61,444 bases of DNA. It comes from Candidatus Uhrbacteria bacterium (GTDB lineage Bacteria; Patescibacteriota; Patescibacteriia; UBA9934). Positions 5,566-54,900 of this stretch are shown here, piece after piece. The stretch lies in NCBI GenBank assembly GCA_943350635.1, contig CALRAI010000002.1:1-61444 (forward strand), read 5' to 3'. The translations under genes and the position numbers were made by a program. A model generated the notes under the pieces. The model worked only from the letters and a program-made list of their open reading frames with translations, was not told where the DNA came from and ran no database searches. Numbering within the stretch: the stretch's first letter is position 1; each line of letters opens with the position of its first letter.

Positions 5566-5940
5566 ATGGCAAAAGGAACCGGACCAGAGACAATCATCGC
5601 GCACGGTGTTCGTTTGGAGGGGGATTTAGTTGCAGAAGGGGATATCGTCATTGAAGGGGAAGTGCACGGTACCGTCAAAACAAAAGGCGATCTTCGTATT
5701 GGGGATCAAGCATTGGTTGAAGCAAATATCGAAGCGAGCAATGCCGTTGTTAGCGGAGAAATTCGTGGAAATATTTTAGTGCATGGAAAACTGGAACTCT
5801 TCCCATCGTCTAAACTTACGGGTGATGTTGTTACCGAAGTGCTTGCGATTGGTCCTGGCGCTCAGGTGAATGGAAATGTGAGCATGGGAGCAGAAGCGCC
5901 AAAAGGAAAGAAGCGCGCAGAAGCCGTTGATGCCGAGTAA
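5566..5940 (+). CDS. bactofilin-family polymer-forming cytoskeletal protein
   Basis: 124-aa protein built from beta-helical repeats (G-D/E-hydrophobic, IEGEVHGTVKTKGDLRIG...VSGEIRGNI), as is typical of the bactofilin/DUF583 family. Confidence 0.8.
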   Translation: MAKGTGPETIIAHGVRLEGDLVAEGDIVIEGEVHGTVKTKGDLRIGDQALVEANIEASNAVVSGEIRGNILVHGKLELFPSSKLTGDVVTEVLAIGPGAQVNGNVSMGAEAPKGKKRAEAVDAE

Positions 5941-5942
5941 GT

Positions 5943-6677
5943 GTGTATTGCTACGTGTACGACGAGGCGCTTCAAGACCGACGATTTGAGCGAGAACTTG
6001 CACAAATCGAGACGCGCTTAACGGATCTGGGTATTGCGGGCAAAATTGCACGCTTGGCTTTGTTTCGTGAGCCGATCGATCTTATTCGTGACGAAATTCG
6101 CGGGGGAGTAACCACGGTGGTTGCGGTGGGGAACGACACCACGCTTCGTCGTGTTATTGATGCGGTACAGGATAGGAAAACCGTCGTCGCGTTGCTTCCG
6201 GTCGGTCCACAAGGCGGAATGGCGACGCTTTTAGGTATGCCAAGTGGCGTTGCCGCGTGCGATGTGTTGAGCGCGCGTATTGTGGAAGAACTCGACGTTG
6301 GCGAAGTGAATGGAAAGCGATTTGTGCAATCGGTACGCATTGAGGGCACCGACTTCTCCATCCATCACGGAAAACAATACGTTGTTACTCCGCTCAGAAA
6401 AGCGTCAATCGAGGTACGAAATTTCGCCGCTCCAGATGATGCGGGAATGATTAGTCCGATCGACGGAAGATTATCGATGATTATTCGACTGCCAAAGTTC
6501 AAGCTGTTTGGCGGAAAACCCGACGTTGGCGTGATTCCCTTTGAAGAAATGTTCGTTGCTTGCGAAAAACACATCACTGCCACGGTGGACGGTGATCAGC
6601 TCCAAGGAAAAGACTTCTCCTTCCGCGTTATTCCTCGTGCGTTGAGACTTGTGACGGGGAAGTCGAGGAAGTTTTAG
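5943..6677 (+). CDS. diacylglycerol/lipid kinase catalytic-domain-like protein (GTG start)
   Basis: A GNDTT motif (VVAVGNDTTLRRVIDAV) resembles the GDGT loop of YegS/DAGK-family kinases. The assignment rests on weak motif-level evidence only. Confidence 0.5.
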   Translation: MYCYVYDEALQDRRFERELAQIETRLTDLGIAGKIARLALFREPIDLIRDEIRGGVTTVVAVGNDTTLRRVIDAVQDRKTVVALLPVGPQGGMATLLGMPSGVAACDVLSARIVEELDVGEVNGKRFVQSVRIEGTDFSIHHGKQYVVTPLRKASIEVRNFAAPDDAGMISPIDGRLSMIIRLPKFKLFGGKPDVGVIPFEEMFVACEKHITATVDGDQLQGKDFSFRVIPRALRLVTGKSRKF

Positions 6678-10894: not shown

Positions 10895-11230
10895 ATGTTG
10901 AATGCAAATGACATGAAGGCACTTCGTGCAATGTTTGGTGAATTGTTACAAGAAAATAATATCGTTCTCCGAAAGGAACTCAAAAAAGAGTGGCGGAAGG
11001 ATATTCAAGAATGCATCGAAGCGAATAATCACGTTCTGAAGCGCGAGATTCGTGACGAGACGCACTCTGTAGTGAAGGCGTCGGCAAAAGCTGTCGTTGA
11101 AGAGCTTCGTCAGGAAATTCATACACTTCGGGACGATCTCCTCGACGTGATTAACGAAGAAATCCTCCCTCAAATCGATGAATGCCAGCGCGATATTGTT
11201 CAATTAAAGATTGCGACGAATCTTGCATAG
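10895..11230 (+). CDS. coiled-coil protein, paralog of 37099..37533
   Basis: It shares the N-terminus (ML..D...LR.MF) and C-terminus (EEILPQIDEcqRdI..lK....LA) with the 37099 gene. Function is unknown. Confidence 0.5.
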   Translation: MLNANDMKALRAMFGELLQENNIVLRKELKKEWRKDIQECIEANNHVLKREIRDETHSVVKASAKAVVEELRQEIHTLRDDLLDVINEEILPQIDECQRDIVQLKIATNLA

Positions 11231-11263
11231 AGGCGTGTGTCGTGATATCCTATTCTCATGTTG

Positions 11264-11290
11264 AAACCTGGCCGCAATGCCAGGTTTTCA
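11264..11290 (+). terminator. rho-independent terminator candidate
   Basis: AAACCTGGC-CGCAAT-GCCAGGTTT followed by a T-rich run, downstream of the stop at 11230. Confidence 0.6.
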
Positions 11291-11332
11291 TCTTAAAAAC
11301 AAGAACATTCATGTTCTTCATAAAAATCTATT

Positions 11333-12565
11333 ATGGCATCAGCAATCGAGTTAGCAATCCGTCAGATTTGTGACGAGAAGGGATTGAGTTACGAGAGTGT
11401 TATTGTGACGATCGAATCTGCACTTGCGGCGGCGTATCGGAAGGATTTTGGCGATAAATATCACAATCTTGAAGCAACATTTGATACAGAAACAGGGTTA
11501 GCTCGTATTTTTGACGTGAAAACGGTGGTTGCAGATATTACGCCAGAAGAAATGGAGGAAGTAAAAAAGATCGAGGCTGAGGAATTTGCGCGTCGCGAGG
11601 CAATGCGCGCATTGGGAGATTTTATGCCGCCAACAGAAGTGGTTGCAGAAGACATTGGTCCAAAGTTCAATCCAAAAACAGACATCATGATTTCCGATGC
11701 GCAGCTCATGAAAATGGGCGCAAAGGTTGGAGATGTGCTGCGTACGGAGCTTCCGCAGGCGGTGGAGTTTGGTCGCATGGCAGCAATGACGGCAAAACAA
11801 GTTATTACGCAAAAGCTTCGCGAGGCGGAACGCGAAATCATTTTTAACGAGTTCAAGGGTGTTGAGGGAGACGTAATTGTCGGTACCGTGCAGCGTCGCG
11901 AGGGCCGTATTATTCTCGTGGACATTGGTCGCACTGCCGGAATCATTAAGCCGGAGGACGCGATGCCAACGGAGCGTTATCGTTCTGGAGATCGATTGAA
12001 ATTTTACGTTCGCGAAGTGTCGCTTGGTGCTCGCGGTGCACAAATTTTGCTTTCACGAACCAGCGAGGAGTTGGTGCGAAAGTTATTCATGGTAGAAATT
12101 CCGGAAGTTGCCGAAGGAGCCGTTGTAATTAAGGCCATCGCTCGTGAGGCCGGAGCTCGAACAAAGATCGCTGTTGCAAGTACAGACGCAAGTATCGATC
12201 CAATTGGTGCGTGTATTGGTCAGCGCGGAAGCCGTATCCAAACAATCACTGGCGAACTTTCCGGTGAGAAGATCGACATTGTGCAGTGGAGTGAAAATCC
12301 ACGAGAATTGATCACACATTCGCTTTCTCCAGCAAAAGTCCTTGAAGTAAATTTGGACGAAGCTGAGCATGCGGCAATCGTTGTTGTGCCAAGTGATCAA
12401 CTTTCTTTGGCGATTGGTCGTGGTGGGCAGAACGTGCGTCTTGCCGCGAAGCTCACCGGATGGAAAGTGAATATTCAAGAGCGTTTGGCGGACGGCGTGG
12501 TTGCTCCGGTCGCGCTTGAGGAATCGAGTCAAACTTCGAGCGAGGCTCCGGTTGTGGCTGAATAA
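11333..12565 (+). CDS. nusA: transcription termination/antitermination factor NusA
   Basis: N-terminal domain, S1 domain (GDVIVGTVQRREG...ILVDIG) and two KH domains (GACIGQRGSRIQ; AIGRGGQNVRLA). Confidence 0.92.
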   Translation: MASAIELAIRQICDEKGLSYESVIVTIESALAAAYRKDFGDKYHNLEATFDTETGLARIFDVKTVVADITPEEMEEVKKIEAEEFARREAMRALGDFMPPTEVVAEDIGPKFNPKTDIMISDAQLMKMGAKVGDVLRTELPQAVEFGRMAAMTAKQVITQKLREAEREIIFNEFKGVEGDVIVGTVQRREGRIILVDIGRTAGIIKPEDAMPTERYRSGDRLKFYVREVSLGARGAQILLSRTSEELVRKLFMVEIPEVAEGAVVIKAIAREAGARTKIAVASTDASIDPIGACIGQRGSRIQTITGELSGEKIDIVQWSENPRELITHSLSPAKVLEVNLDEAEHAAIVVVPSDQLSLAIGRGGQNVRLAAKLTGWKVNIQERLADGVVAPVALEESSQTSSEAPVVAE

Positions 12566-14333: not shown

Positions 14334-15221
14334 ATGCCAACAGCGCTCGAGCAGTCGTTGTTTCGTGCGCTGGCCTATTTTGCATATTTTCGTTATCCGT
14401 TAACGACGATGGAGCTGTGGAAATGGTGCGATGTCCCTGAGACATCAATCGTAGGCATCGATGAAACGATTCAGTCATCCGTCTGGCTTCGGGAAAAAGG
14501 CGTGCGGTCAGACCATGGATTTTTTGGTGTTGGCGATGTTGGGTCTTGGCGTGCTGAGCGTATTCATCGAGTGACTGATGCGTTGCGGAAGTCTCGTCGC
14601 GCAGAGCGATTTGTACGCTTTGCAAGCATTTTTCCGTGGATAAAGATGATTGCGGTGTGTAATTCCTTAGCATTTTCCTTTACGAATACGGAAAGCGATA
14701 TCGATCTGTGTATCGTGACACAACGGGGAAGAATCTGGTCTACACGATTACTCCTCACGGGCGTACTCGCACTCATGCGTGCGCGCCCAGGTGAGCGTGA
14801 AAAGGATCCATTGTGTCTGAGCTTTTTTATCGCAGAGGATCGGCTCGATCTTTCGTTGGTAAAGATTGGGCCAGAGGACCCGTATTTGTTGTATTGGATT
14901 GCAACGCTTTCTCCAGTATTGGACCGAGACGAAACATGCGCAAAACTTCATGCAGCAAACGCATGGATTCGGCCGAACGTTCCTCGAGTGCAGCGGGTAC
15001 AAAAGGCTCAATCGTATGTGGTAGCCGCGCCATCGAGAATCCCGAATATTTCCTGGATCGAGCCATATGCGGAACGATTCCAACGTTCCAGATTCCCCAC
15101 AGTATTGCGATCGATGATGAATCAAGACTCCAGAGTTGTGGTAACGGATAGCATGTTAAAATTTCATCATAACGATCGTCGTCAAGAAATTCTCAACGCC
15201 TATGAAACGATGGTTTCCTAA
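14334..15221 (+). CDS. hypothetical protein, possible nucleotidyltransferase fold
   Basis: The only motif-level hint is SLAFSFTNTESDIDLCIV, which resembles the pol-beta NTase G[ST]...DxD motif. Confidence 0.35.
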   Translation: MPTALEQSLFRALAYFAYFRYPLTTMELWKWCDVPETSIVGIDETIQSSVWLREKGVRSDHGFFGVGDVGSWRAERIHRVTDALRKSRRAERFVRFASIFPWIKMIAVCNSLAFSFTNTESDIDLCIVTQRGRIWSTRLLLTGVLALMRARPGEREKDPLCLSFFIAEDRLDLSLVKIGPEDPYLLYWIATLSPVLDRDETCAKLHAANAWIRPNVPRVQRVQKAQSYVVAAPSRIPNISWIEPYAERFQRSRFPTVLRSMMNQDSRVVVTDSMLKFHHNDRRQEILNAYETMVS

Positions 15222-16509
15222 TTGGACAACATTCCTCCTTTCCATCGTGGCGTTTCTTTTGCCGTGGCAAACGCGATGGATGTATGCCGAAGCAACGATT
15301 GCTGGCGCACATACCGAGTTTGGCGTGATGAGCGTGTATGGCGTGGAAGCGCTTTTGCTGCTTGCACTCATCGGCGGCAGGCTTCTGGATAAAAAATCGT
15401 GGATGGTGTCGCAGCGGTATCATTTGCCAATTCGTCTTGGAGCGATCGCGCTGATCGCGATAACCCTCGGCACGGCATTTGCGGATCGTTCGCTCTTTTC
15501 GCTGACGATGACGGTACATCTTGCGCTGGCATATCTGTTGTTTGTTGCTGTTGTTTATGATCGTGTTTCGGTGAAACATCTCCTATTCGCCTTTGTCGCC
15601 TCGCTGATTGCGCCGATGCTTTTGGGAGCTGCACAAGTATTTGGTGGGTCGTCGCCGGCGTGTTCGTGGTTGGGCTTGGCAGCTCGCGATGCCGCGCAAT
15701 TGGGTGACGCAATTTTTACGGTGGACGGACAGCGCGTACTGCGGGCATACGGCAGTTTTCCACATCCGAACGTGTTTGGCGGATTCCTTGGCGTTGGATT
15801 GTTTGCGTGGTGGGGTGCAATGGCAAGCGTGAAACGGTCGTTCGGTCAGCAGAAACATCTCATTGTCACGAGCGTTGGTACGGTGGTTCTGCTTGGAGGG
15901 CTGGTGATGACGGGGTCGCGATCCGCGTTTCTTGGAGTACTTGTGGGGCTCGTGGGGGTGTTTTTGGTGAAATCCATTTCCAATATTGCTCTTGCGCGGT
16001 CGGCGGCTTTGGTATTCGGCGTGACTGCAGTTGCTGGATCGCTGATTGGATCATTTTATCTTACCGATCTTGCGTCGAGCATTCGTGGTGGGGGAGTAAA
16101 CGAAGAGCGATCGTTGCTTGAGCGCGTTGCGCTCTACGAAGATTTTGTGCCGTTCATGGTGGCAACGAATCCTGTGTTTGGTCATGGTATTGGAGCGTAC
16201 GTGTTGTCCTATGCCGACAGCCAGCCAGGAAAGAATGCGTTCGACTATCAACCGATTCATAATGCGCCGTTGTTGGTTCTGGCGGAATCTGGCGTGTTGG
16301 GGCTTGGTGCATTTCTCCTTTGGATTGCAAGCGCAGCATGGACGAATATTCGTCGTTTTCCGCATCGGGACGCGTTGTACGCACTGGGAATGGGAAATGT
16401 TGTGGTGATGATTGCGTTTTTTGATCACTATCTTTGGTCCTCCTGGGCGGGGCTTGCGCTCATTGCGTTTGTGTTGGGAATGATGGTGAGAATGGGGGAA
16501 GACTCATGA
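15202..16509 (+). CDS. O-antigen ligase/polymerase (Wzy_C)-family membrane protein
   Basis: About 10-12 TM helices and a central TGSRSAFLG motif followed by a loop typical of the O-antigen ligase family. Confidence 0.7.
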   Translation: MKRWFPNWTTFLLSIVAFLLPWQTRWMYAEATIAGAHTEFGVMSVYGVEALLLLALIGGRLLDKKSWMVSQRYHLPIRLGAIALIAITLGTAFADRSLFSLTMTVHLALAYLLFVAVVYDRVSVKHLLFAFVASLIAPMLLGAAQVFGGSSPACSWLGLAARDAAQLGDAIFTVDGQRVLRAYGSFPHPNVFGGFLGVGLFAWWGAMASVKRSFGQQKHLIVTSVGTVVLLGGLVMTGSRSAFLGVLVGLVGVFLVKSISNIALARSAALVFGVTAVAGSLIGSFYLTDLASSIRGGGVNEERSLLERVALYEDFVPFMVATNPVFGHGIGAYVLSYADSQPGKNAFDYQPIHNAPLLVLAESGVLGLGAFLLWIASAAWTNIRRFPHRDALYALGMGNVVVMIAFFDHYLWSSWAGLALIAFVLGMMVRMGEDS

Positions 16510-16531
16510 GCACCAATAAATATTGAGCGAA

Positions 16532-16660
16532 TCAACGGGTGGCACCGCGGGAGGCCCCCATACGGAGCGCAGCTCGCACAGCATACAGACGATGCTTCCT
16601 ACAAAGCCCCACGTGCGAGTCGAGCACCGTAATGGGGTCCGCGGTGACAGGACCCGTTGA
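16532..16660 (+). other. 129-nt extended, multiply interrupted hairpin (function unknown)
   Basis: Nested helices: TCAACGGGT/ACCCGTTGA, CACCGCGG/CCGCGGTG, CCCCAT-ACGG/CCGTAATGGGG, CTCGCAC/GTGCGAG, and the apical AGCAT-ACAGACG-ATGCT. Confidence 0.55.
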
Positions 16661-16705
16661 TGAGTGATATCAGGATTCGATAGCGATTTTCTTTAGAGGG
16701 GAGGG

Positions 16706-17090
16706 GATTCTTTGGATGGAGTTGAGAGATGGAGATGGCTTGTGGTTTTATCGTGGGAATTGTTGCGACCATCGGCTATCGCGATTTCAAGGGGCTCCTA
16801 CCGAAATTGAGGTAAAGAAACATGGCACCTGTGAGGTTGCACGATCGTAAAATCGGCAATATTCGATCGTGAACATCGCAAAACACAAACGCCGGTCGTA
16901 GAGAGGGTCACCGACGGGCGTGATCAATGTTGAAATCAATTCCCGGTTCCTACATGCAACTCGGTTGCATTAGCAGAGCCCCTGTTTTTAAAACACATAC
17001 CCCCACTCTCAGCAAAGCTATTGTCAACGCCAAATATCGTGAGCGATCACCGCCATTCGTCCCGTCCTCCCAACCAAATCCAAGAGTCAC
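16706..17090 (+). repeat. copy A of a ~360-385-nt noncoding element (copy B at 53444..53801, opposite strand)
   Basis: It can be aligned by eye to the reverse complement of 53444-53801, with long identical blocks such as GGTTCCTACATGCAACTCGGTTGCATTAGCAGA. It has imperfect terminal inverted repeats. The ORFs crossing it are not conserved in frame. Confidence 0.75.
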
Positions 17091-17169
17091 CCTCACATTC
17101 CCCCCCATCACAACCCCGACCCCGCAAAAGAATCACAATCACATCATCAATCTTTTTTTACATACACAC

Positions 17170-17196
17170 TTAGCAGTCTTGCCAAGAGAGTGCTAA
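17170..17196 (+). promoter_or_regulatory. CIRCE operator (HrcA binding site)
   Basis: TTAGCAGTC-N9-GAGTGCTAA compared with the consensus TTAGCACTC-N9-GAGTGCTAA, lying 40 nt upstream of groES. Confidence 0.85.
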
Positions 17197-17235
17197 TTTC
17201 GTAATATTGTCCCGTAAGATTTTTAACTTTTCCTT

Positions 17236-17520
17236 ATGAACCTTCGGCCATTAGGTGGACATATTATCGTCGAACCACAAGAACGAGAAGTAAAAACAGC
17301 GTCCGGAATTTATTTGCCTGATTCCGGTGAAAAGCGTCAGGGTCAAGGTCTTGTTGTCGCTGTTGGTCCAGGAAAATTGGAGAAAGGCGAGCGTCAGCCA
17401 GTGGAGGTAAAGATCGGCGACATCATCGTGTTCAAGCAATATTCTCCAGACGAAGTAAAACTCGAAAATAAAACGTTCCTCATCGTTTCCGCCGATGACG
17501 TCACTGCGGTAATTGAATAA
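17236..17520 (+). CDS. groES: co-chaperonin GroES
   Basis: 94 aa with the canonical GroES sequence (RPLGGHIIVEP...ASGIYLPDS...GDIIVF). Confidence 0.95.
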   Translation: MNLRPLGGHIIVEPQEREVKTASGIYLPDSGEKRQGQGLVVAVGPGKLEKGERQPVEVKIGDIIVFKQYSPDEVKLENKTFLIVSADDVTAVIE

Positions 17521-41457: not shown

Positions 41458-42087
41458 ATGAAAAAAATTCTCAAAATCACGAGTGCGATGTTCGTGGGAG
41501 CGTTCCTTATCGGCATCGGTCTTCACACAAATCTCATTCATCTTCCATTTGCTCGAGCAATCGACGCAAGCTTTCCGGAAGCGTTGAGCACCGATCGAGG
41601 TTTTGTAGGTGCAGTACACACGGTATCCGTTGCGAAAGTGATGAAGAACACGGGGCAGTCGATAGTGAACGGGATTCCTACAACACAGTTCCAAGTACAA
41701 ATCATTAAAAATATCAAAGGCACGCTTCCGGAGCGCGTCGTCCTTCAGCAGTCGGGTGGATACGAAAATGGCGTACTCATCACGATGGAAGAACAGCCAT
41801 TATTGAAGGCGGGATCGACGTATCTTCTTTCCACGCGAACCGACGGAAAAGGCATGTATCTCGTTTCTGCGTATACGCGAGGAACGATTCTGCTCAGTGC
41901 GGATCAAAAACTCACAACGACACAGTTGCTCGCGATATCGACAGCAAACAAAGATGTGATCGCCCTTCGAAATGCATACGCTACCGAACTCCCGTTTGAT
42001 ATCGACGTACAAAATACGGCAACCTTCAATAGCTTCATAAAAACCGTCACCATTCCATCCACACCCATATCGCCACAAACATGGTAA
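41458..42087 (+). CDS. secreted hypothetical protein
   Basis: Signal peptide (MKKILKITSAMFVGAFLIGIG) and no recognisable motif. Confidence 0.45.
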   Translation: MKKILKITSAMFVGAFLIGIGLHTNLIHLPFARAIDASFPEALSTDRGFVGAVHTVSVAKVMKNTGQSIVNGIPTTQFQVQIIKNIKGTLPERVVLQQSGGYENGVLITMEEQPLLKAGSTYLLSTRTDGKGMYLVSAYTRGTILLSADQKLTTTQLLAISTANKDVIALRNAYATELPFDIDVQNTATFNSFIKTVTIPSTPISPQTW

Positions 42088-42281: not shown

Positions 42282-42623
42282 CGCGGGGTAGAGCAGCCAG
42301 GCAGCTCGTCGGGCTCAATCGCAAGAATTGCACTCATGGATCCTTATGATCTTTTTCTTGCAAAGGGCTGCGCGTAACGAAAGTCACGCGTGAACTTCTG
42401 TCAAATTCGGGGAAGCCTGTAATGGTAATCCCGAGCCAAGCCTTGAGCAATCAAGGAAGGTGTAGAGACTTGATGGCAGACGCCCAAACCAATCATCGTG
42501 AAAGCGGTGTGCGACGGGTGAAGGGAAAGTCCAGACCAACAAATTCGATTCGTCGAAGTAGCGAAAGCTATAGTGGTATGCATAACCCGAAGGTCGCTGG
42601 TTCAAATCCAGCCCCCGCAACCA
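42282..42623 (+). tRNA. initiator tRNA-Met (CAU) interrupted by an intron in the anticodon loop
   Basis: Exons 42282-42315 and 42581-42623 join to a sequence almost identical to E. coli tRNA-fMet. The joined form has the C1-A72 mismatch, a GGG/CCC anticodon stem, the loop CTCATAA and an encoded CCA. Confidence 0.9.
42316..42580 (+). ncRNA. group I intron (IC3-like, tRNA-intron type), no ORF
   Basis: The 5' exon ends in U and the intron ends in G. Core strings match the Azoarcus/Anabaena tRNA introns from memory: GTCAAATTCGGGGAAGCC, AATCCCGAGCCAAGCC, GGAAGGTGTAGAGACTTGATGG, GTAGCGAAAGCTAT. Confidence 0.85.
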
Positions 42624-42675
42624 AAATGTCCTCCGTCGCAAGACTGGGGATTTTTTGTTATACTTCTCTCTATCT

Positions 42676-43461
42676 ATGGCGCACATCGTCTCGGTAGTAA
42701 ATCAGAAGGGCGGCGTGGGAAAAACCACCACATCCATGAATCTTGCAGCATTTTTGTCGCATCTGGGAAAATCTGTACTCCTCGTTGATCTTGATCCGCA
42801 AGGCAATGCCACCAGTGGTTTTGGCATGAAGCCCACCGAACTTTCCGGAACCTACGAAGCACTTGCAGGCACGCACCAGGTTCGCGATCTTATTGTCGGT
42901 ACGGCGCATCCTGGCCTTGCGCTGCTTCCTGGCGGCCCAGATCTTGCCGGTTCTGCGGTGGAACTTGTTACGGAATTCAACCGTGAGCGAAAGCTGGAAG
43001 CCGCACTTATGGCGGTGCGGAACGACTACGACTACATTCTTATCGACAATCCGCCGTCGTTGGGCTTGCTTACTATTAACGGCCTTGTCGCGAGCGACAG
43101 CGTGCTTATTCCGGTGCAGGCGGAATACTACGCGTTGGAAGGACTTGGACAGCTCATGCACACCGTAAATTTAGTGCGTGAACATCTCAAGCCAAACCTT
43201 GGTATCATGGGGGCAGTGATTACGATGTTCGATCCAAGAACAAACCTTTCGAATCAGGTGCTTCAGGAGCTGTACAAACACTTTCCGGGAAAGATTTTCC
43301 GTTCGGTTATTCCCCGAAGCGTTCGTTTAGCCGAAGCACCAAGTTTTGGAAAAACCATTTTGCATTACGACGCAGAAAGCAAAGCGGCAAAGGCATACGA
43401 ACGTTTAGCACGAGAATTTTTAGTGCGCGAAGAATCGGGGACCGCAACGGTAAATGGATAA
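42676..43461 (+). CDS. parA: chromosome partitioning ATPase ParA/Soj
   Basis: Deviant Walker A motif NQKGGVGKTTT. The start was placed at MAHIVSVV. Confidence 0.92.
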   Translation: MAHIVSVVNQKGGVGKTTTSMNLAAFLSHLGKSVLLVDLDPQGNATSGFGMKPTELSGTYEALAGTHQVRDLIVGTAHPGLALLPGGPDLAGSAVELVTEFNRERKLEAALMAVRNDYDYILIDNPPSLGLLTINGLVASDSVLIPVQAEYYALEGLGQLMHTVNLVREHLKPNLGIMGAVITMFDPRTNLSNQVLQELYKHFPGKIFRSVIPRSVRLAEAPSFGKTILHYDAESKAAKAYERLAREFLVREESGTATVNG

Positions 43462-51063: not shown

Positions 51064-51100
51064 AAAAAACGAACGACGATATTACTCGTCGTTCGTTTTT
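51064..51100. terminator. bidirectional hairpin between convergent genes, overlapping the last topA codons
   Basis: AAAAACGAACGACGA-TATTAC-TCGTCGTTCGTTTTT. Confidence 0.6.
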
Positions 51101-53364
51101 ACTTTGCGCTTCCAGCGGCTTTTTGGTGCCTTGCGTTTTTTTACCAGGAGATCGATCGCCGATGCAAGCGTTACCGATAGCGGATCGATACCTTTCGGAA
51201 TAGTGGCATTCGTGGTGCCGTCGGTAACGTACGCACCGTATCGTCCATCCTTAATAACGATATTCGCTTTGGTTTCGGGTTCAATGCCGAGCTCCGCAAG
51301 TGGCGTCATGGCTTTAATCTTCTTTGCGACTCCTTCGGTGCAAAGCGCGATAGCCTGATCGAGGGTTACGGTCGCTGGATGGTGCTCTGGCGGCAATGTG
51401 ATATTCACGGCGCCGCATTTGAGATACGGACCAAAGCGTCCAACGTTCGCAATAATCTCTTCGCCATTGGTGTGTTTTCCGAGCGTTCGAGGAAGCGAAA
51501 GAAGCTTGAGTGCTTGTTCGAGCGTAAGCGTATCGATCGTCTGGTTCTTCTCAAGACTTGCGCGCTTAGGCTTTTCTGCCTTTTTGTCGGGGGACAACTC
51601 ACCGACCTGAACAAAGGGACCGAATCGACCAGTACGTGCCACAATCATTTTTCCGCTTTCAGGATCGATTCCGATTTCGGTTACTTTCATGATCGAATCT
51701 CGTTCAAGCTCTTTGCCCTTCGTCGCAATCGCCTCATGAAACGGGCCGTAGAATCCCGCAAGCACGAGCTGCCAATTTTCTTCACCTTCCGCAATCTGGT
51801 CGAGCTTGGTTTCCATGGTTGCCGTAAAATCGTAATCAACAATCTGTGGAAAATGTTCTTTCAAAAGATCGATCACCACAAAAGCAATGTCGGACGGATA
51901 CAGGCGTTTGCCGTCGTCCCGCAACACATAGCCACGTGCTTCAATGGTGTTGAGTGTGGGAGCGTACGTAGAAGGGCGACCGATACCGTATTCTTCCATG
52001 ATTTTAATCAACGACGCGTCGGAATAGCGTGCTGGCGGTTCGGTGAAATGCTGTTCGGGCGTAACGCTAATAGCCTTGCCGATATTTTCACCTTCAGTTA
52101 GCGCTGGAAGAATTTTATCCTCCGACGCCTGCCACACCTTCATGAAGCCTTCAAACACGACGATGCTGCCGTTGCCGCGGAATGTATGTGCGTTTGCCGT
52201 AAAGTCGATTGCGGTGCGTTCAAGTTTTGCGCTTGGCAATTGGGAAGCAATCGTGCGGCGCCATAAAAGATCATAAAGTTTCCACATCCCAGGATCCAGT
52301 TCGGCACGAAGCGTTTCTGGCGTGGCGTTCACGTCCGTTGGACGAATGGCTTCGTGTGCTTCCTGCGCACCTTTCTTGTTGGTTTTGTAATGAATGCCGC
52401 CGGTGGTGTACTCCTTGCCCCACTGTGCGGTAATAAATGTTTGTGCTGCAGCAATAAACTGCTCACTCAAATTGGTAGAATCGGTTCGCATGTAGGTAAT
52501 CTTTCCTGTTTCGTACAGCTTTTGCGCCAACGTCATCGTCTGTTTTGCACTCATGCCAAGGCGATTGTATGCCTCCTGTTGCATCGTTGAGGTGGTGAGC
52601 GGCGTTGGTGACTTTCGGCTCGCAGCCTTTTTCTCGATGCTTTTGACGACGAAATCAGCATCACGCACTGCAGCAACAACAGCATCAGATTCCTGCTGGG
52701 TTTTGATATCAAGTTTATCGATCTTCCGGTCGCCGATCGCAATAAGCTTGGTGGGGAATTCGGAATTCGCCTTCGAGAGTATCGCCTCGACCGACCAGTA
52801 TTCATCGGTTTTGAATGCCTGACGTTCGCGTTCGCGTTCAACGACGAGTCGAACAGCCACCGATTGCACTCGGCCAGCAGAAAGTCCACGCTGCACCTTT
52901 GCCCACAATAGTGGAGAGAGTTCATAACCCACTAATCGATCCAGGATACGGCGCGTCTGCTGTGCATCCACCATGCGCATGTCGATATGTCGGGTGTTTT
53001 CCAATGCTGCAGCAATGGCGGTTTTGGTAATTTCATGAAACGTAATACGCTTTGCCGTTTTCGGGTCGAGCTTCAAAACTTCAGCAATATGCCACGCAAT
53101 CGCTTCTCCTTCTCGGTCCTCGTCCGTTGCGAGATAAATGTCGGTTGCGCCTTTTGCTGCGTCCTTTAATGCCTTCACCTTATCCTTCTTGTCGTCGGGA
53201 ATCTCGTACGTAGGGTGAAAACCATGATGAACGTCTACCGCGGTGCTTTTCTTAGGAAGGTCGCGAATATGGCCAAAAGAAGAGATGACTTTGTACTCTT
53301 TTCCAAGGAATTTGGTGATGGTTTTGGCTTTGGTGGGGGACTCAACAATGAGGAGTTTAGACAT
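51082..53364 (-). CDS. topA: DNA topoisomerase I
   Basis: TOPRIM N-terminus (LLIVESPTKAKTI), the active-site Tyr region (ITYMRTDST) and C-terminal repeat domains. Confidence 0.95.
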   Translation of the reverse strand: MSKLLIVESPTKAKTITKFLGKEYKVISSFGHIRDLPKKSTAVDVHHGFHPTYEIPDDKKDKVKALKDAAKGATDIYLATDEDREGEAIAWHIAEVLKLDPKTAKRITFHEITKTAIAAALENTRHIDMRMVDAQQTRRILDRLVGYELSPLLWAKVQRGLSAGRVQSVAVRLVVERERERQAFKTDEYWSVEAILSKANSEFPTKLIAIGDRKIDKLDIKTQQESDAVVAAVRDADFVVKSIEKKAASRKSPTPLTTSTMQQEAYNRLGMSAKQTMTLAQKLYETGKITYMRTDSTNLSEQFIAAAQTFITAQWGKEYTTGGIHYKTNKKGAQEAHEAIRPTDVNATPETLRAELDPGMWKLYDLLWRRTIASQLPSAKLERTAIDFTANAHTFRGNGSIVVFEGFMKVWQASEDKILPALTEGENIGKAISVTPEQHFTEPPARYSDASLIKIMEEYGIGRPSTYAPTLNTIEARGYVLRDDGKRLYPSDIAFVVIDLLKEHFPQIVDYDFTATMETKLDQIAEGEENWQLVLAGFYGPFHEAIATKGKELERDSIMKVTEIGIDPESGKMIVARTGRFGPFVQVGELSPDKKAEKPKRASLEKNQTIDTLTLEQALKLLSLPRTLGKHTNGEEIIANVGRFGPYLKCGAVNITLPPEHHPATVTLDQAIALCTEGVAKKIKAMTPLAELGIEPETKANIVIKDGRYGAYVTDGTTNATIPKGIDPLSVTLASAIDLLVKKRKAPKSRWKRKVKTNDE

Positions 53365-53443
53365 AATGGGGGAGGGAATGGGGACGACGATAGCATGATA
53401 CCAGTATGAGGGGAATTCTTTGATTGATTAGGAGGGAAGAACA

Positions 53444-53801
53444 GTGATTCTTGGATTTGGTTGGGAGGACGGGACGGAGGTGACGATTGTTGTGTTGAGA
53501 GTGGGGGTATGCGTTTTCAAAACAGGGGTTCTGCTAATGCAACCGAGTTGCATGTAGGAACCAGGAATAGGTTTTGTCATCGACCGTAGCTGTCGATAAT
53601 CCCTTCTACAGATCGGCGTTTGTGTTCTGCGATATTCACGATCGACTATTGCGAATTTCACGATCGCGCAGCCTTCCAGGTGCCATGTTTTTAGACCCCA
53701 ATTTCGGTAGGAGCTCCTTGAAATCGCGATAATCGACGGTCGCAACAAATTCCAAAGAACGTACAAATAACGCTCCGCCTCTCAACCCCATCCAAAGAAT
53801 C
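53444..53801 (-). repeat. copy B of the ~360-385-nt noncoding element (copy A at 16706..17090)
   Basis: Its reverse complement aligns with copy A. The element fills most of the dprA-topA spacer. Confidence 0.75.
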
Positions 53802-53814
53802 TTCTCACTTCAGA

Positions 53815-54900
53815 TTACGTTTTCCTCACAAACTGTTTTCCCCCAACATCTTCAATAAACCCAAGAAGTTCCAAACCCGTCAGCGCAACAGAAGCGGCGC
53901 TTGTGGTGAGTTTTGCTTTTTCGATTGCCGTGTCGATATGCACCGGCACTGCGCCAAACTCTGCAAACAATGCAATTTCGTCGGGAGATCGTCCAATAGG
54001 CAGGAATGCCGTTGCACTCGCGCTTGGCGCCACGTTCATCCCAAGCACCTCAAAAATATCCCGAGCTTCGGTCACAACATGCGCGCCATGCTTCAGAAGC
54101 TCATTTGTCCCTTTACTCATCGCTGAATCGATCATTCCCGGCACCGCAAACACTTCGCGATTCTCACTCGTCGCCGATGTGGTCGTGAGCAATGTTCCCG
54201 ACGGTACTCCGGCTTCAATGGCTAACGTTCCGTGACACATTCCTGCAACAATGCGGTTGCGAATGGGGAAATTGTGCGCAAGGGGCGCCATCGTAAATTG
54301 AAATTCACTGATGACGGCACCACCACCATCGACGATCGCGTCACTCAGTTCAAAGTGCCGCGTATTATCTACTCCAAGAATTCCGGATCCAAGCACCGCA
54401 AGAGTGATCCCGTTGGCATCGAGCGCTCCACGATGACACGCCTCATCAATCCCATACGCCAAGCCGCTCACCACGACAATTCCTGCATTCGCACAGTCGA
54501 ACGCTAACTTCTTCGCAACACGCAAGCCATACTGCGTTGCGTGCCGGGATCCCACCATGGCAAGATGTTTCTTTGCCGTTGACGGCAACGTTCCTTTGAC
54601 GAACAACAGTGTGGGTGGTGTGTGGATAGTTTTGAGCATCTCGGGATACTCGTCGTCCGCAATCGTTACCGCACGAATTCCGTGTTTTTCCATGATGTCT
54701 ACAAATTCTTGCGGATCATGTTCTGTACGAAATTTCAGAAACTTTGGTACGTCTTGCGGTCGAATTTTTGCAGCAATCAACTCATCTGCGCTTGCATTCC
54801 ACGCATCCTTGGGATCCGAAAAATATTCAAACATCACCGCGTTGGACTTTGGTCCAAACCACGGAACATTCGCGATCGCAATAGTATAAGGGGATGTCAT
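53815..54900 (-). CDS. dprA: DNA processing protein DprA
   Basis: DprA Rossmann-like core (VVSGLAYGIDEACHRGAL...FPIRNRIVAG) and a C-terminal winged-helix-like domain. Confidence 0.9.
   Translation of the reverse strand: MTSPYTIAIANVPWFGPKSNAVMFEYFSDPKDAWNASADELIAAKIRPQDVPKFLKFRTEHDPQEFVDIMEKHGIRAVTIADDEYPEMLKTIHTPPTLLFVKGTLPSTAKKHLAMVGSRHATQYGLRVAKKLAFDCANAGIVVVSGLAYGIDEACHRGALDANGITLAVLGSGILGVDNTRHFELSDAIVDGGGAVISEFQFTMAPLAHNFPIRNRIVAGMCHGTLAIEAGVPSGTLLTTTSATSENREVFAVPGMIDSAMSKGTNELLKHGAHVVTEARDIFEVLGMNVAPSASATAFLPIGRSPDEIALFAEFGAVPVHIDTAIEKAKLTTSAASVALTGLELLGFIEDVGGKQFVRKT

Follow-up and report, generated by a model that had tools for sequence, protein, structure and literature searches.

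An intergenic repeat pair with inverted ends and a predicted Fur/Zur operator in a Candidatus Uhrbacteria genome

The Correia elements (CREE) of Neisseria are bacterial miniature inverted-repeat transposable elements (MITEs), and the ERIC/IRU repeats of enterobacteria are intergenic repeats for which we know of no transposase or target duplication. The concept that transposable elements carry transcription-factor sites to new loci derives mainly from eukaryotes, and a literature search for papers naming both MITEs and the Candidate Phyla Radiation (CPR) yielded a single paper, in which the two terms merely co-occur. Here we report the analysis of an intergenic element of about 360-385 nt that is present as two copies, A and B, in a 61,444-nt stretch of contig CALRAI010000002.1 (Candidatus Uhrbacteria bacterium, assembly GCA_943350635.1), referred to below as the window. 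We consider it somewhat better than even, with a probability of about 0.55, that A and B are copies of a non-autonomous, MITE/ERIC-like intergenic repeat carrying a Fur/Zur operator in a CPR/Patescibacteria lineage. The cargo of the repeat would be the predicted operator plus about 100 nt that have a paralogue upstream of the fur-znuABC promoter in the same genome.

Paralogous copies, inverted ends and site occupancy

Copy A (16706-17090, + strand) lies between a gene resembling Wzy_C/O-antigen ligases (15202-16509, wzy below) and groES (17236-17520), and copy B (53444-53801, - strand) lies between dprA (53815-54900, -) and topA (51082-53364, -). A preliminary description of this DNA, made by eye, had proposed that the two were paralogous from end to end. 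This was confirmed by blastn, which gave 76.7% identity over 387 columns with gaps counted (E 1e-81) and 85% once the comparison was restricted to the 355 ungapped columns. No third full copy was detected in the 61-kb window by blastn or with a hidden Markov model (HMM) of the terminal repeats, and the approximately 95 kb of the source genome covered here held the two full copies and one half copy, at fur. A block of 33 nt (16945-16977 in A, 53530-53562 in B) is identical between the copies. Perfect blocks of 33 and 27 nt are unexceptional at 85% identity, as by our estimate about 0.25 and 0.66 such runs would be expected; they matter because they are conserved across species, not because of their length alone.

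Near-identical contigs were found in the metagenome-assembled genomes (MAGs) GCA_964792595.1 and GCA_943349025.1, and the nearest named homologues (Uhrbacteria and "Patescibacteria group bacterium") were at most 43-51% identical. Three Logan contigs of the source species (L009, L011 and L012) begin or end within the 33-nt block common to A and B, as expected of a repeat. Owing to this shared block, short-read assemblies break at the groES and topA sites.

Both copies are bounded by imperfect inverted repeats, as had been claimed, and at about 30-35 nt these are longer than first described. In A, the G/T-rich left terminal repeat (GATTCTTTGGATGGAGTTGAGAG...) is at 16704-16738 (+; terminal-repeat HMM E 3.5e-4 in the window) and pairs with the inverted right terminal repeat (CGTCCCGTCCTCCCAACCAAATCCAAGAGTC) at 17056-17091 (+). 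The left and right repeats of B are at 53771-53802 (-; E 4.6e-5) and 53443-53478 (-; E 1.7e-4), respectively. The end type of the family is GA(T/G)TCTTTGGA..., and inverted ends were present in all five full members examined, with 22-46 matching positions each. The most similar pair belongs to the inner element of a related contig, L016, whose ends are near-identical (46 matches over about 54 columns). In the window and 128 kb of related loci, matches to the terminal-repeat HMM were confined to the ends of elements and to regions upstream of fur, and the right terminal repeat sequence of A recurs upstream of the fur-znuA promoter of its own genome. Weak remnants resembling the terminal repeats adjoin both copies, one just outside B (53410-53442, -; ...TCAATCAAAGAATTCCCCTCA; E 6), where it precedes the conserved topA promoter region, and one beside A (17102-17137; E 9.7).

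To describe the family in related species, loci were fetched around homologues of DprA and Wzy and then searched with a profile (nhmmer). Family members are 292-529 nt in length and have imperfect inverted repeats of 30-50 nt at their ends. Two members (L013, 15531-15935; L070, 331-723) lie between a gene for a 118-aa protein and relA/spoT. Two others lie at the wzy/groES site, as A does, and start at the wzy stop codon (L148, 11320-11611, E 7e-23 with a model built without L148; L149, E 3.6e-13). The dprA/topA site is filled in the window species, L016, L144 and L147, differently in the last three, and empty in L013, L145 and L019, where the spacers are 48, 63 and 58 nt. The site between the 118-aa gene and relA is filled in L013 and L070 and empty in the window species (66 nt) and L016 (55 nt). 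Insertion polymorphism at orthologous sites was thus found at both dprA/topA and the 118-aa gene/relA.

The arrangement at dprA/topA in L016 is a nest. Within an outer pair of ends there is an inner element oriented opposite to B, with a partial second copy alongside. The 876-nt spacer that holds it (11100-11880) includes a good boxed promoter (TTGCTA-17-TAAGAA) in the inner element, and the partial copy, a right half with a second box, lies between. The inserts at the same site in L144 (6055-6400) and L147 (4225-4600) have ends that resemble those of the family by eye only, as the profile gave an E of 0.13 for L144 and no match for L147. Each carries two copies of a palindrome (ATGTTAAC-TGGA-GTTAACAT in L144, GTGTAAAG-N4-CTTTACA in L147) flanking a TTTTTGCAA stretch. 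These palindromes could serve as cassettes of different regulators or, alternatively, represent a diverged form of the box described below.

Likeness is greater between the copies of one genome than between positional counterparts in different species, as A scored 210 against B and 33 against its positional orthologue in L148. This relationship fits either duplication to new sites or conversion within the lineage.

An operator palindrome shared with the fur-znuABC control region

The best conserved part of the element is a palindrome, ATGCAAC-TCG-GTTGCAT, which lies within the identical 33-nt block at 16954-16970 in A and at 53537-53553 in B and had been described as an invariant hairpin. Evidence for another role came from a contig of the same MAG, L020, that overlaps the end of the window (L020 positions are window positions minus 58997). 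About 3.7 kb past the window end, L020 encodes a Fur-family protein of 143 aa (L020 6221-6652); genes for ZnuA, an ABC ATPase and an ABC-3 permease come next. The box ATGCAACTGAGTTGCAT (L020 6189-6205) is situated between the hexamers TTGCTA and TAAGCT, the latter 9 nt before the fur ATG; these promoter hexamers are our own reading and are below the threshold of a consensus promoter scan. The short distance from the -10-like hexamer to the fur start suggests a leaderless, or nearly leaderless, mRNA.

The similarity to the fur promoter extends well beyond the box. The approximately 100 nt upstream of the L020 box run via TAGCAAGACCCCCTGTTCAAAATCGCATACCCC to CGTCCTCCCAACCAAATCCAAGAATC and can be aligned with the part of the element that extends from the hairpin as far as the right end. 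Blastn aligned 53446-53553 (-) of B with L020 6098-6205 at 80.7% identity over 109 nt (E 8.6e-23). The corresponding segment of A (16954-17088, +), which comprises the operator, a GTTTTnAAAAC motif, a C-rich stretch and the right terminal repeat, matched at 78% over 69 nt plus 85% over 48 nt (nhmmer E 6e-16). Overall, the fur half-copy is 82-84% identical to A and B. The GTTTTTAAAACAC motif beside the operator (16984-16996, +, in A; 53511-53523, -, in B) is kept throughout the family and recurs in each of the three fur promoters, and the same layout of box, hexamers and element-like upstream sequence also precedes fur in the related species L013 and L016. Upstream of fur, L020 has two direct copies of the terminal-repeat motif, at 5900-5931 and 6096-6129.

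The box has the consensus ATGC(A/G)A(A/C)-N3-(G/T)T(C/T)GCAT, a 7-3-7 palindrome with an extended TA..TA flank. In its degenerate form it was found in at least 120 metagenome stretches, from many unrelated organisms, compared with about 7 expected by chance by our estimate. An open reading frame (ORF) for a Fur-family protein, a TonB-dependent receptor or a ZnuA-family protein adjoins the box in 46 of 113 metagenome stretches. Pfam confirmation covered ten proteins, nine of them such neighbors and the tenth a ZIP transporter. The latter came from a scan of a genome collection with a 20-mer of the hairpin block, whose single match, in a Candidatus Peribacteria genome (L001, JAHFJR010000024.1), was to the beginning of a gene for a ZIP zinc transporter. 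There, at 2723-2744, a 22-nt core that includes the palindrome forms the start region of the gene (MQLGCIS...), placing the operator over the translation start. We rejected this match as a copy of the element, the similarity being limited to the 22 nt. In a scan of viral sequences a 17-mer gave three matches, one of which (L003) reappeared in blastn and shares only about 21 nt; a right-end 20-mer gave none, and distant blastn of plasmid and phage collections found no match to the element.

The variant of the box in an element is usually the variant in the fur promoter of its own species. L016 is a partial exception, as the box of its inner element matches the L016 fur promoter and the adjacent partial copy carries the other variant. 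Across the family the palindrome variants are symmetric (AAC/GTT versus GAA/TTC). Changes of this kind, which would be read as compensatory in an RNA stem, are those shown by the site of a dimeric repressor. Based on its genomic context, we identify the invariant hairpin as a predicted operator of a Fur-family, most likely Zur-type, regulator.

In neither copy does the operator precede a metal-homeostasis gene; the topA and groES promoters lie 140-220 nt downstream of it. The groES promoter (TTGCCA-17-TAATAT, 17179-17207) lies 3' of copy A. A textbook CIRCE operator (TTAGCAGTC-N9-GAGTGCTAA; 17171-17197, +) overlaps it and has a degenerate counterpart in L148. As the promoter and CIRCE are both downstream of A, A is not simply the leader of groES. 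Beside B, the topA-proximal stretch (ACTGGTATCATGCTATCGTC...) is also kept in relatives that have no element.

An operator with promoter hexamers around it could alternatively drive a Fur/Zur-controlled unit on the opposite strand, in which the left part of about 245 nt would be a metal-regulated small RNA or a long leader (into relA in L013 and L070). A and B would then be a pair of paralogous regulatory RNAs; duplicated Fur-controlled small RNAs occur in other bacteria, such as PrrF1/2 and the RyhB paralogues. Consistent with such a unit, collinearity between the element and the fur promoter begins about 10 nt to the gene side of the operator and continues outwards, no part of the family is better conserved than the box, and the good hexamers of the L016 inner copy (TTGCTA-17-TAAGAA) are also found in L070; in both L013 and L070 the hexamers point at relA. 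However, the -10-like hexamer in A, B and L013 is GTAGGA or AAAGGA, without the key T/A positions, and neither a promoter nor a terminator was called. Transcription from A and B in this direction would enter wzy and dprA at their 3' ends, antisense to them. In addition, positional orthologues show little conservation of the left part, which has no stable conserved fold on that strand, and relA, topA and groES each retain their own conserved promoter downstream of the element. We consider this explanation unlikely.

Folding and coding potential of the element

The preliminary description had considered mainly that the element might be a structured non-coding RNA gene of about 360-385 nt, read in the + sense, with its ends as a closing helix and its hairpins kept by compensatory change. 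Several observations were in keeping with that proposal. A and B folded better than their shuffles (z -3.6 and -2.5), several blocks in the 5' two-thirds are conserved across species, and, when the structure derived from A and B was applied to four members, 17 pairs had changed on both sides compared with 10.7 in shuffles. The three hairpins do exist in both copies. Hairpin 1 is the palindrome, and hairpin 2 (16840-47 with 16864-71) has an A-U pair in A that is G-U in B, as had been noted. The stems of hairpin 3 were also found (GGTCAC/GTGATC in A, ATCGAC/GTCGAT in B), but their positions are offset by 2-3 alignment columns rather than equivalent.

Hairpins 2 and 3 were not upheld when more members were examined. 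Across six members hairpin 1 was paired in 90.5% of cells, hairpin 2 in 60% and hairpin 3 in 58-67%, and the segment with hairpin 2 is deleted in L148. RNAalifold predicted 40 pairs (-21 kcal/mol, covariation -0.5) for four members and 28 pairs (-12.9 kcal/mol, covariation term +0.42) for six, and the six-member consensus was reduced essentially to the inverted ends and the operator palindrome. A secondary structure conserved with covariation across homologues was not obtained, and the family as a whole has in common only its ends, the operator palindrome with adjoining sequence and a few short blocks.

Inside the ends, the element folded hardly better than shuffled sequence. Whole elements had z values of -3 to -7 on both strands, and trimming 40 nt from each end left values of only 0 to -2.7, alike on the two strands. 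Mismatches between the ends of five elements comprised 4 forward-wobble, 8 reverse-wobble and 9 transversion positions and 14 gap columns. This absence of a wobble preference on either strand argues against a structured RNA. In addition, the palindrome is accounted for as an operator, the orientation of the element relative to neighboring genes varies, and no promoter or terminator was predicted for such an RNA. Neither copy had a relevant match in Rfam by cmscan, at the gathering threshold or at E<=10, in agreement with the earlier failure to place the element in a known RNA family. Together, these data make a structured RNA gene quite improbable. Of the two explanations first offered for the inverted ends, the closing helix of a large RNA was not supported and the ends of a repeat element are favored. 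More generally, a palindrome combined with long inverted ends is easily mistaken for a novel structured RNA.

The analyses of coding potential indicated that the element is non-coding. Indels were said to destroy any common reading frame, and two indels of 1 nt do break the upstream frame; the 27-nt indel is in frame, however, and the 3' third shares a frame between A and B. Based on the 1-nt indels and a 32-nt insertion that L070 has in the stretch upstream of the shared-frame part, we regard the element as non-coding nonetheless. A small protein could be sought in a 112-aa ORF that spans B (53428-53766), or in the MQLGCISR... frame of A and B, whose first 22 nt also begin the ZIP transporter gene in the Peribacteria genome, and the in-frame 27-nt indel would suit such a protein. 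Against it, besides the frame-breaking indels and the L070 insertion, gene callers called nothing in the element in five contigs, and six-frame peptides of A and B matched no protein in the database at E<=0.001. The small-protein explanation is essentially refuted. The left part was also considered as a decayed fur gene and rejected, as the Fur protein has no similarity to it in any frame.

Two further features of the window came to light in these scans. A second small repeat, a very stable long hairpin of about 150 nt (16525-16675, +; -70.3 kcal/mol, z -5.55), sits between the wzy stop codon and A. It is absent from that position in L148 and L149; a copy with 71% identity over 147 nt (E 1e-9) is on the other strand of the L148 groES-groEL spacer (12012-12153). 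This repeat had no Rfam match. A match to the group I intron family (42343-42555, +) scored 51.1 bits, where the gathering score is 50. It is intergenic, between an unannotated 209-aa ORF (41458-42087) and parA (42655-43461), and is not within a tRNA, rRNA or recognizable protein gene. We interpret it as a false positive near the cutoff or, alternatively, as a free-standing group I-like RNA.

Spread, possible effects and comparison with known systems

The terminal inverted repeats, the size (less than about 600 bp), the lack of coding capacity and the insertion polymorphism are features of MITEs. Strict membership of that class is unproven because neither a target-site duplication nor a parent transposase was found, and we therefore describe the element as MITE/ERIC-like, rather than as a proven MITE. 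A plain MITE with many near-identical copies and target-site duplications, as envisaged in the preliminary description, does not match what we found, which were old, diverged copies with no duplication seen. We infer that the element spread by duplication to new intergenic sites, either by transposition in trans or by recombination or conversion between repeats.

A number of observations weigh against a MITE/ERIC-like repeat that carries an operator. Comparison of filled and empty sites recognized no target-site duplication at A, B, L070, L013 or the L016 inner copy; the flanks are diverged and a duplication of 2-3 bp could have been missed. No parent transposase or transposon with matching ends turned up, although none was specifically sought. 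A and B are about 15-23% diverged and there was no sign of recent bursts, and the greater likeness of copies within a genome could be due to gene conversion instead of transposition. The wzy/groES element was present, in one orientation, in all three species for which DNA was available, which could be simple vertical inheritance. With respect to the operator, A and B have only degraded sigma-70-like hexamers around it (CTGCTA / GTAGGA), and neither copy was predicted to hold a consensus sigma-70 promoter or an intrinsic terminator by scans whose sole match was the groES promoter. With its hexamers degraded and no promoter or terminator predicted, a regulatory effect of the element on its neighbors is unproven. 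Lastly, the structure derived from A and B was 79% paired on four members, compared with about 40% in slid controls, a figure biased by A and B themselves, which contribute by construction. Some local hairpins are possible, and nothing supports a large conserved fold.

The same observations bear on the idea that the copies are immobile, old segmental duplicates of the fur-znuA control region that already stood at several sites in the common ancestor, homogenized by conversion and lost in places by deletion, with ends that are a recurrent intergenic motif. The single orientation at wzy/groES in three species, the half-element at fur that is likewise common to three species, the missing target-site duplication, the divergence of the copies and their likeness within a genome would all fit. 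Immobile duplicates would not readily account for the orientation at dprA/topA in L016, which is opposite to that in the window, or for the copies in L016 that are nested or partial and have near-identical ends. Nor do they account for the L144 and L147 inserts, with like ends and different interiors, or for the reciprocal pattern in which the window species is filled at dprA/topA and empty at relA and L013 is the reverse. We therefore judge an origin as immobile duplicates to be improbable, and favor the MITE/ERIC-like repeat.

If the MITE/ERIC-like repeat does carry a functional operator, each copy would set a predicted Fur-family repressor site near housekeeping genes (groESL, topA and relA). 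A plausible effect in A and B would be that of a repressor site, or decoy, upstream of topA and groES at 140-220 nt from their promoters; the relA gene of L013 and L070 would face a boxed promoter. In transcripts reading through from wzy (A) or dprA (B), the ends could form a long hairpin that might affect termination, processing or stability, by analogy with other repeats. Going further, we speculate that the repeat is a vehicle that copies the host Fur/Zur operator and part of the zur promoter to new sites. It would thereby wire groESL, topoisomerase I and relA/spoT into the metal-starvation response, or supply decoys that buffer a single Fur-family repressor. This proposal is tentative and we hold it to be rather doubtful. 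If it is correct, it would represent regulon growth by a mobile element in minimal-genome CPR bacteria with very few regulators. If the MITE/ERIC-like explanation is right, A and B belong to a CPR/Patescibacteria family of small intergenic repeats that has not been described before, and would provide a testable case of a repeat that spreads the operator of its own host's metal regulator within a small regulatory repertoire.

Among the systems described, the Correia elements provide the closest parallel. Both they and the A/B family are small, non-coding and intergenic, have inverted repeats of about 26-35 nt and occupy many insertion-polymorphic sites. Both also combine promoter-like sequences with the site of a DNA-binding protein of the host, which is IHF for the Correia elements and a predicted Fur-family regulator here. 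Correia elements are co-transcribed with their neighbors and their ends can form a long RNA hairpin, which for A and B is a proposal. However, Correia elements are 100-155 bp in length, very numerous and nearly identical, and are flanked by a TA duplication, whereas members of the A/B family are 290-530 bp, differ by 15-40%, show no duplication and carry an operator homologous to the host fur promoter region.

The ERIC/IRU repeats are similar to A and B in being imperfect palindromic repeats in intergenic regions, often transcribed, that differ in presence or absence between related species and have size variants produced by internal insertion or deletion. They differ in their length (about 127 bp), in having a conserved central inverted repeat and in having no known regulator site; moreover, they come from a different phylum and share no sequence similarity with the A/B family. 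With respect to known Fur boxes, the class of palindrome found in A and B overlaps the promoter hexamers of the predicted autoregulated fur-znuABC operon and adjoins genes for TonB-dependent receptors, Fur, ZnuA and ZIP proteins in unrelated contigs. In A and B, by contrast, the box is inside a repeat, with degraded hexamers and no metal-homeostasis gene behind it. This combination resembles the transposable-element-borne sites known mainly from eukaryotes, in that a repeat family would carry the predicted binding site of one regulator to new loci.

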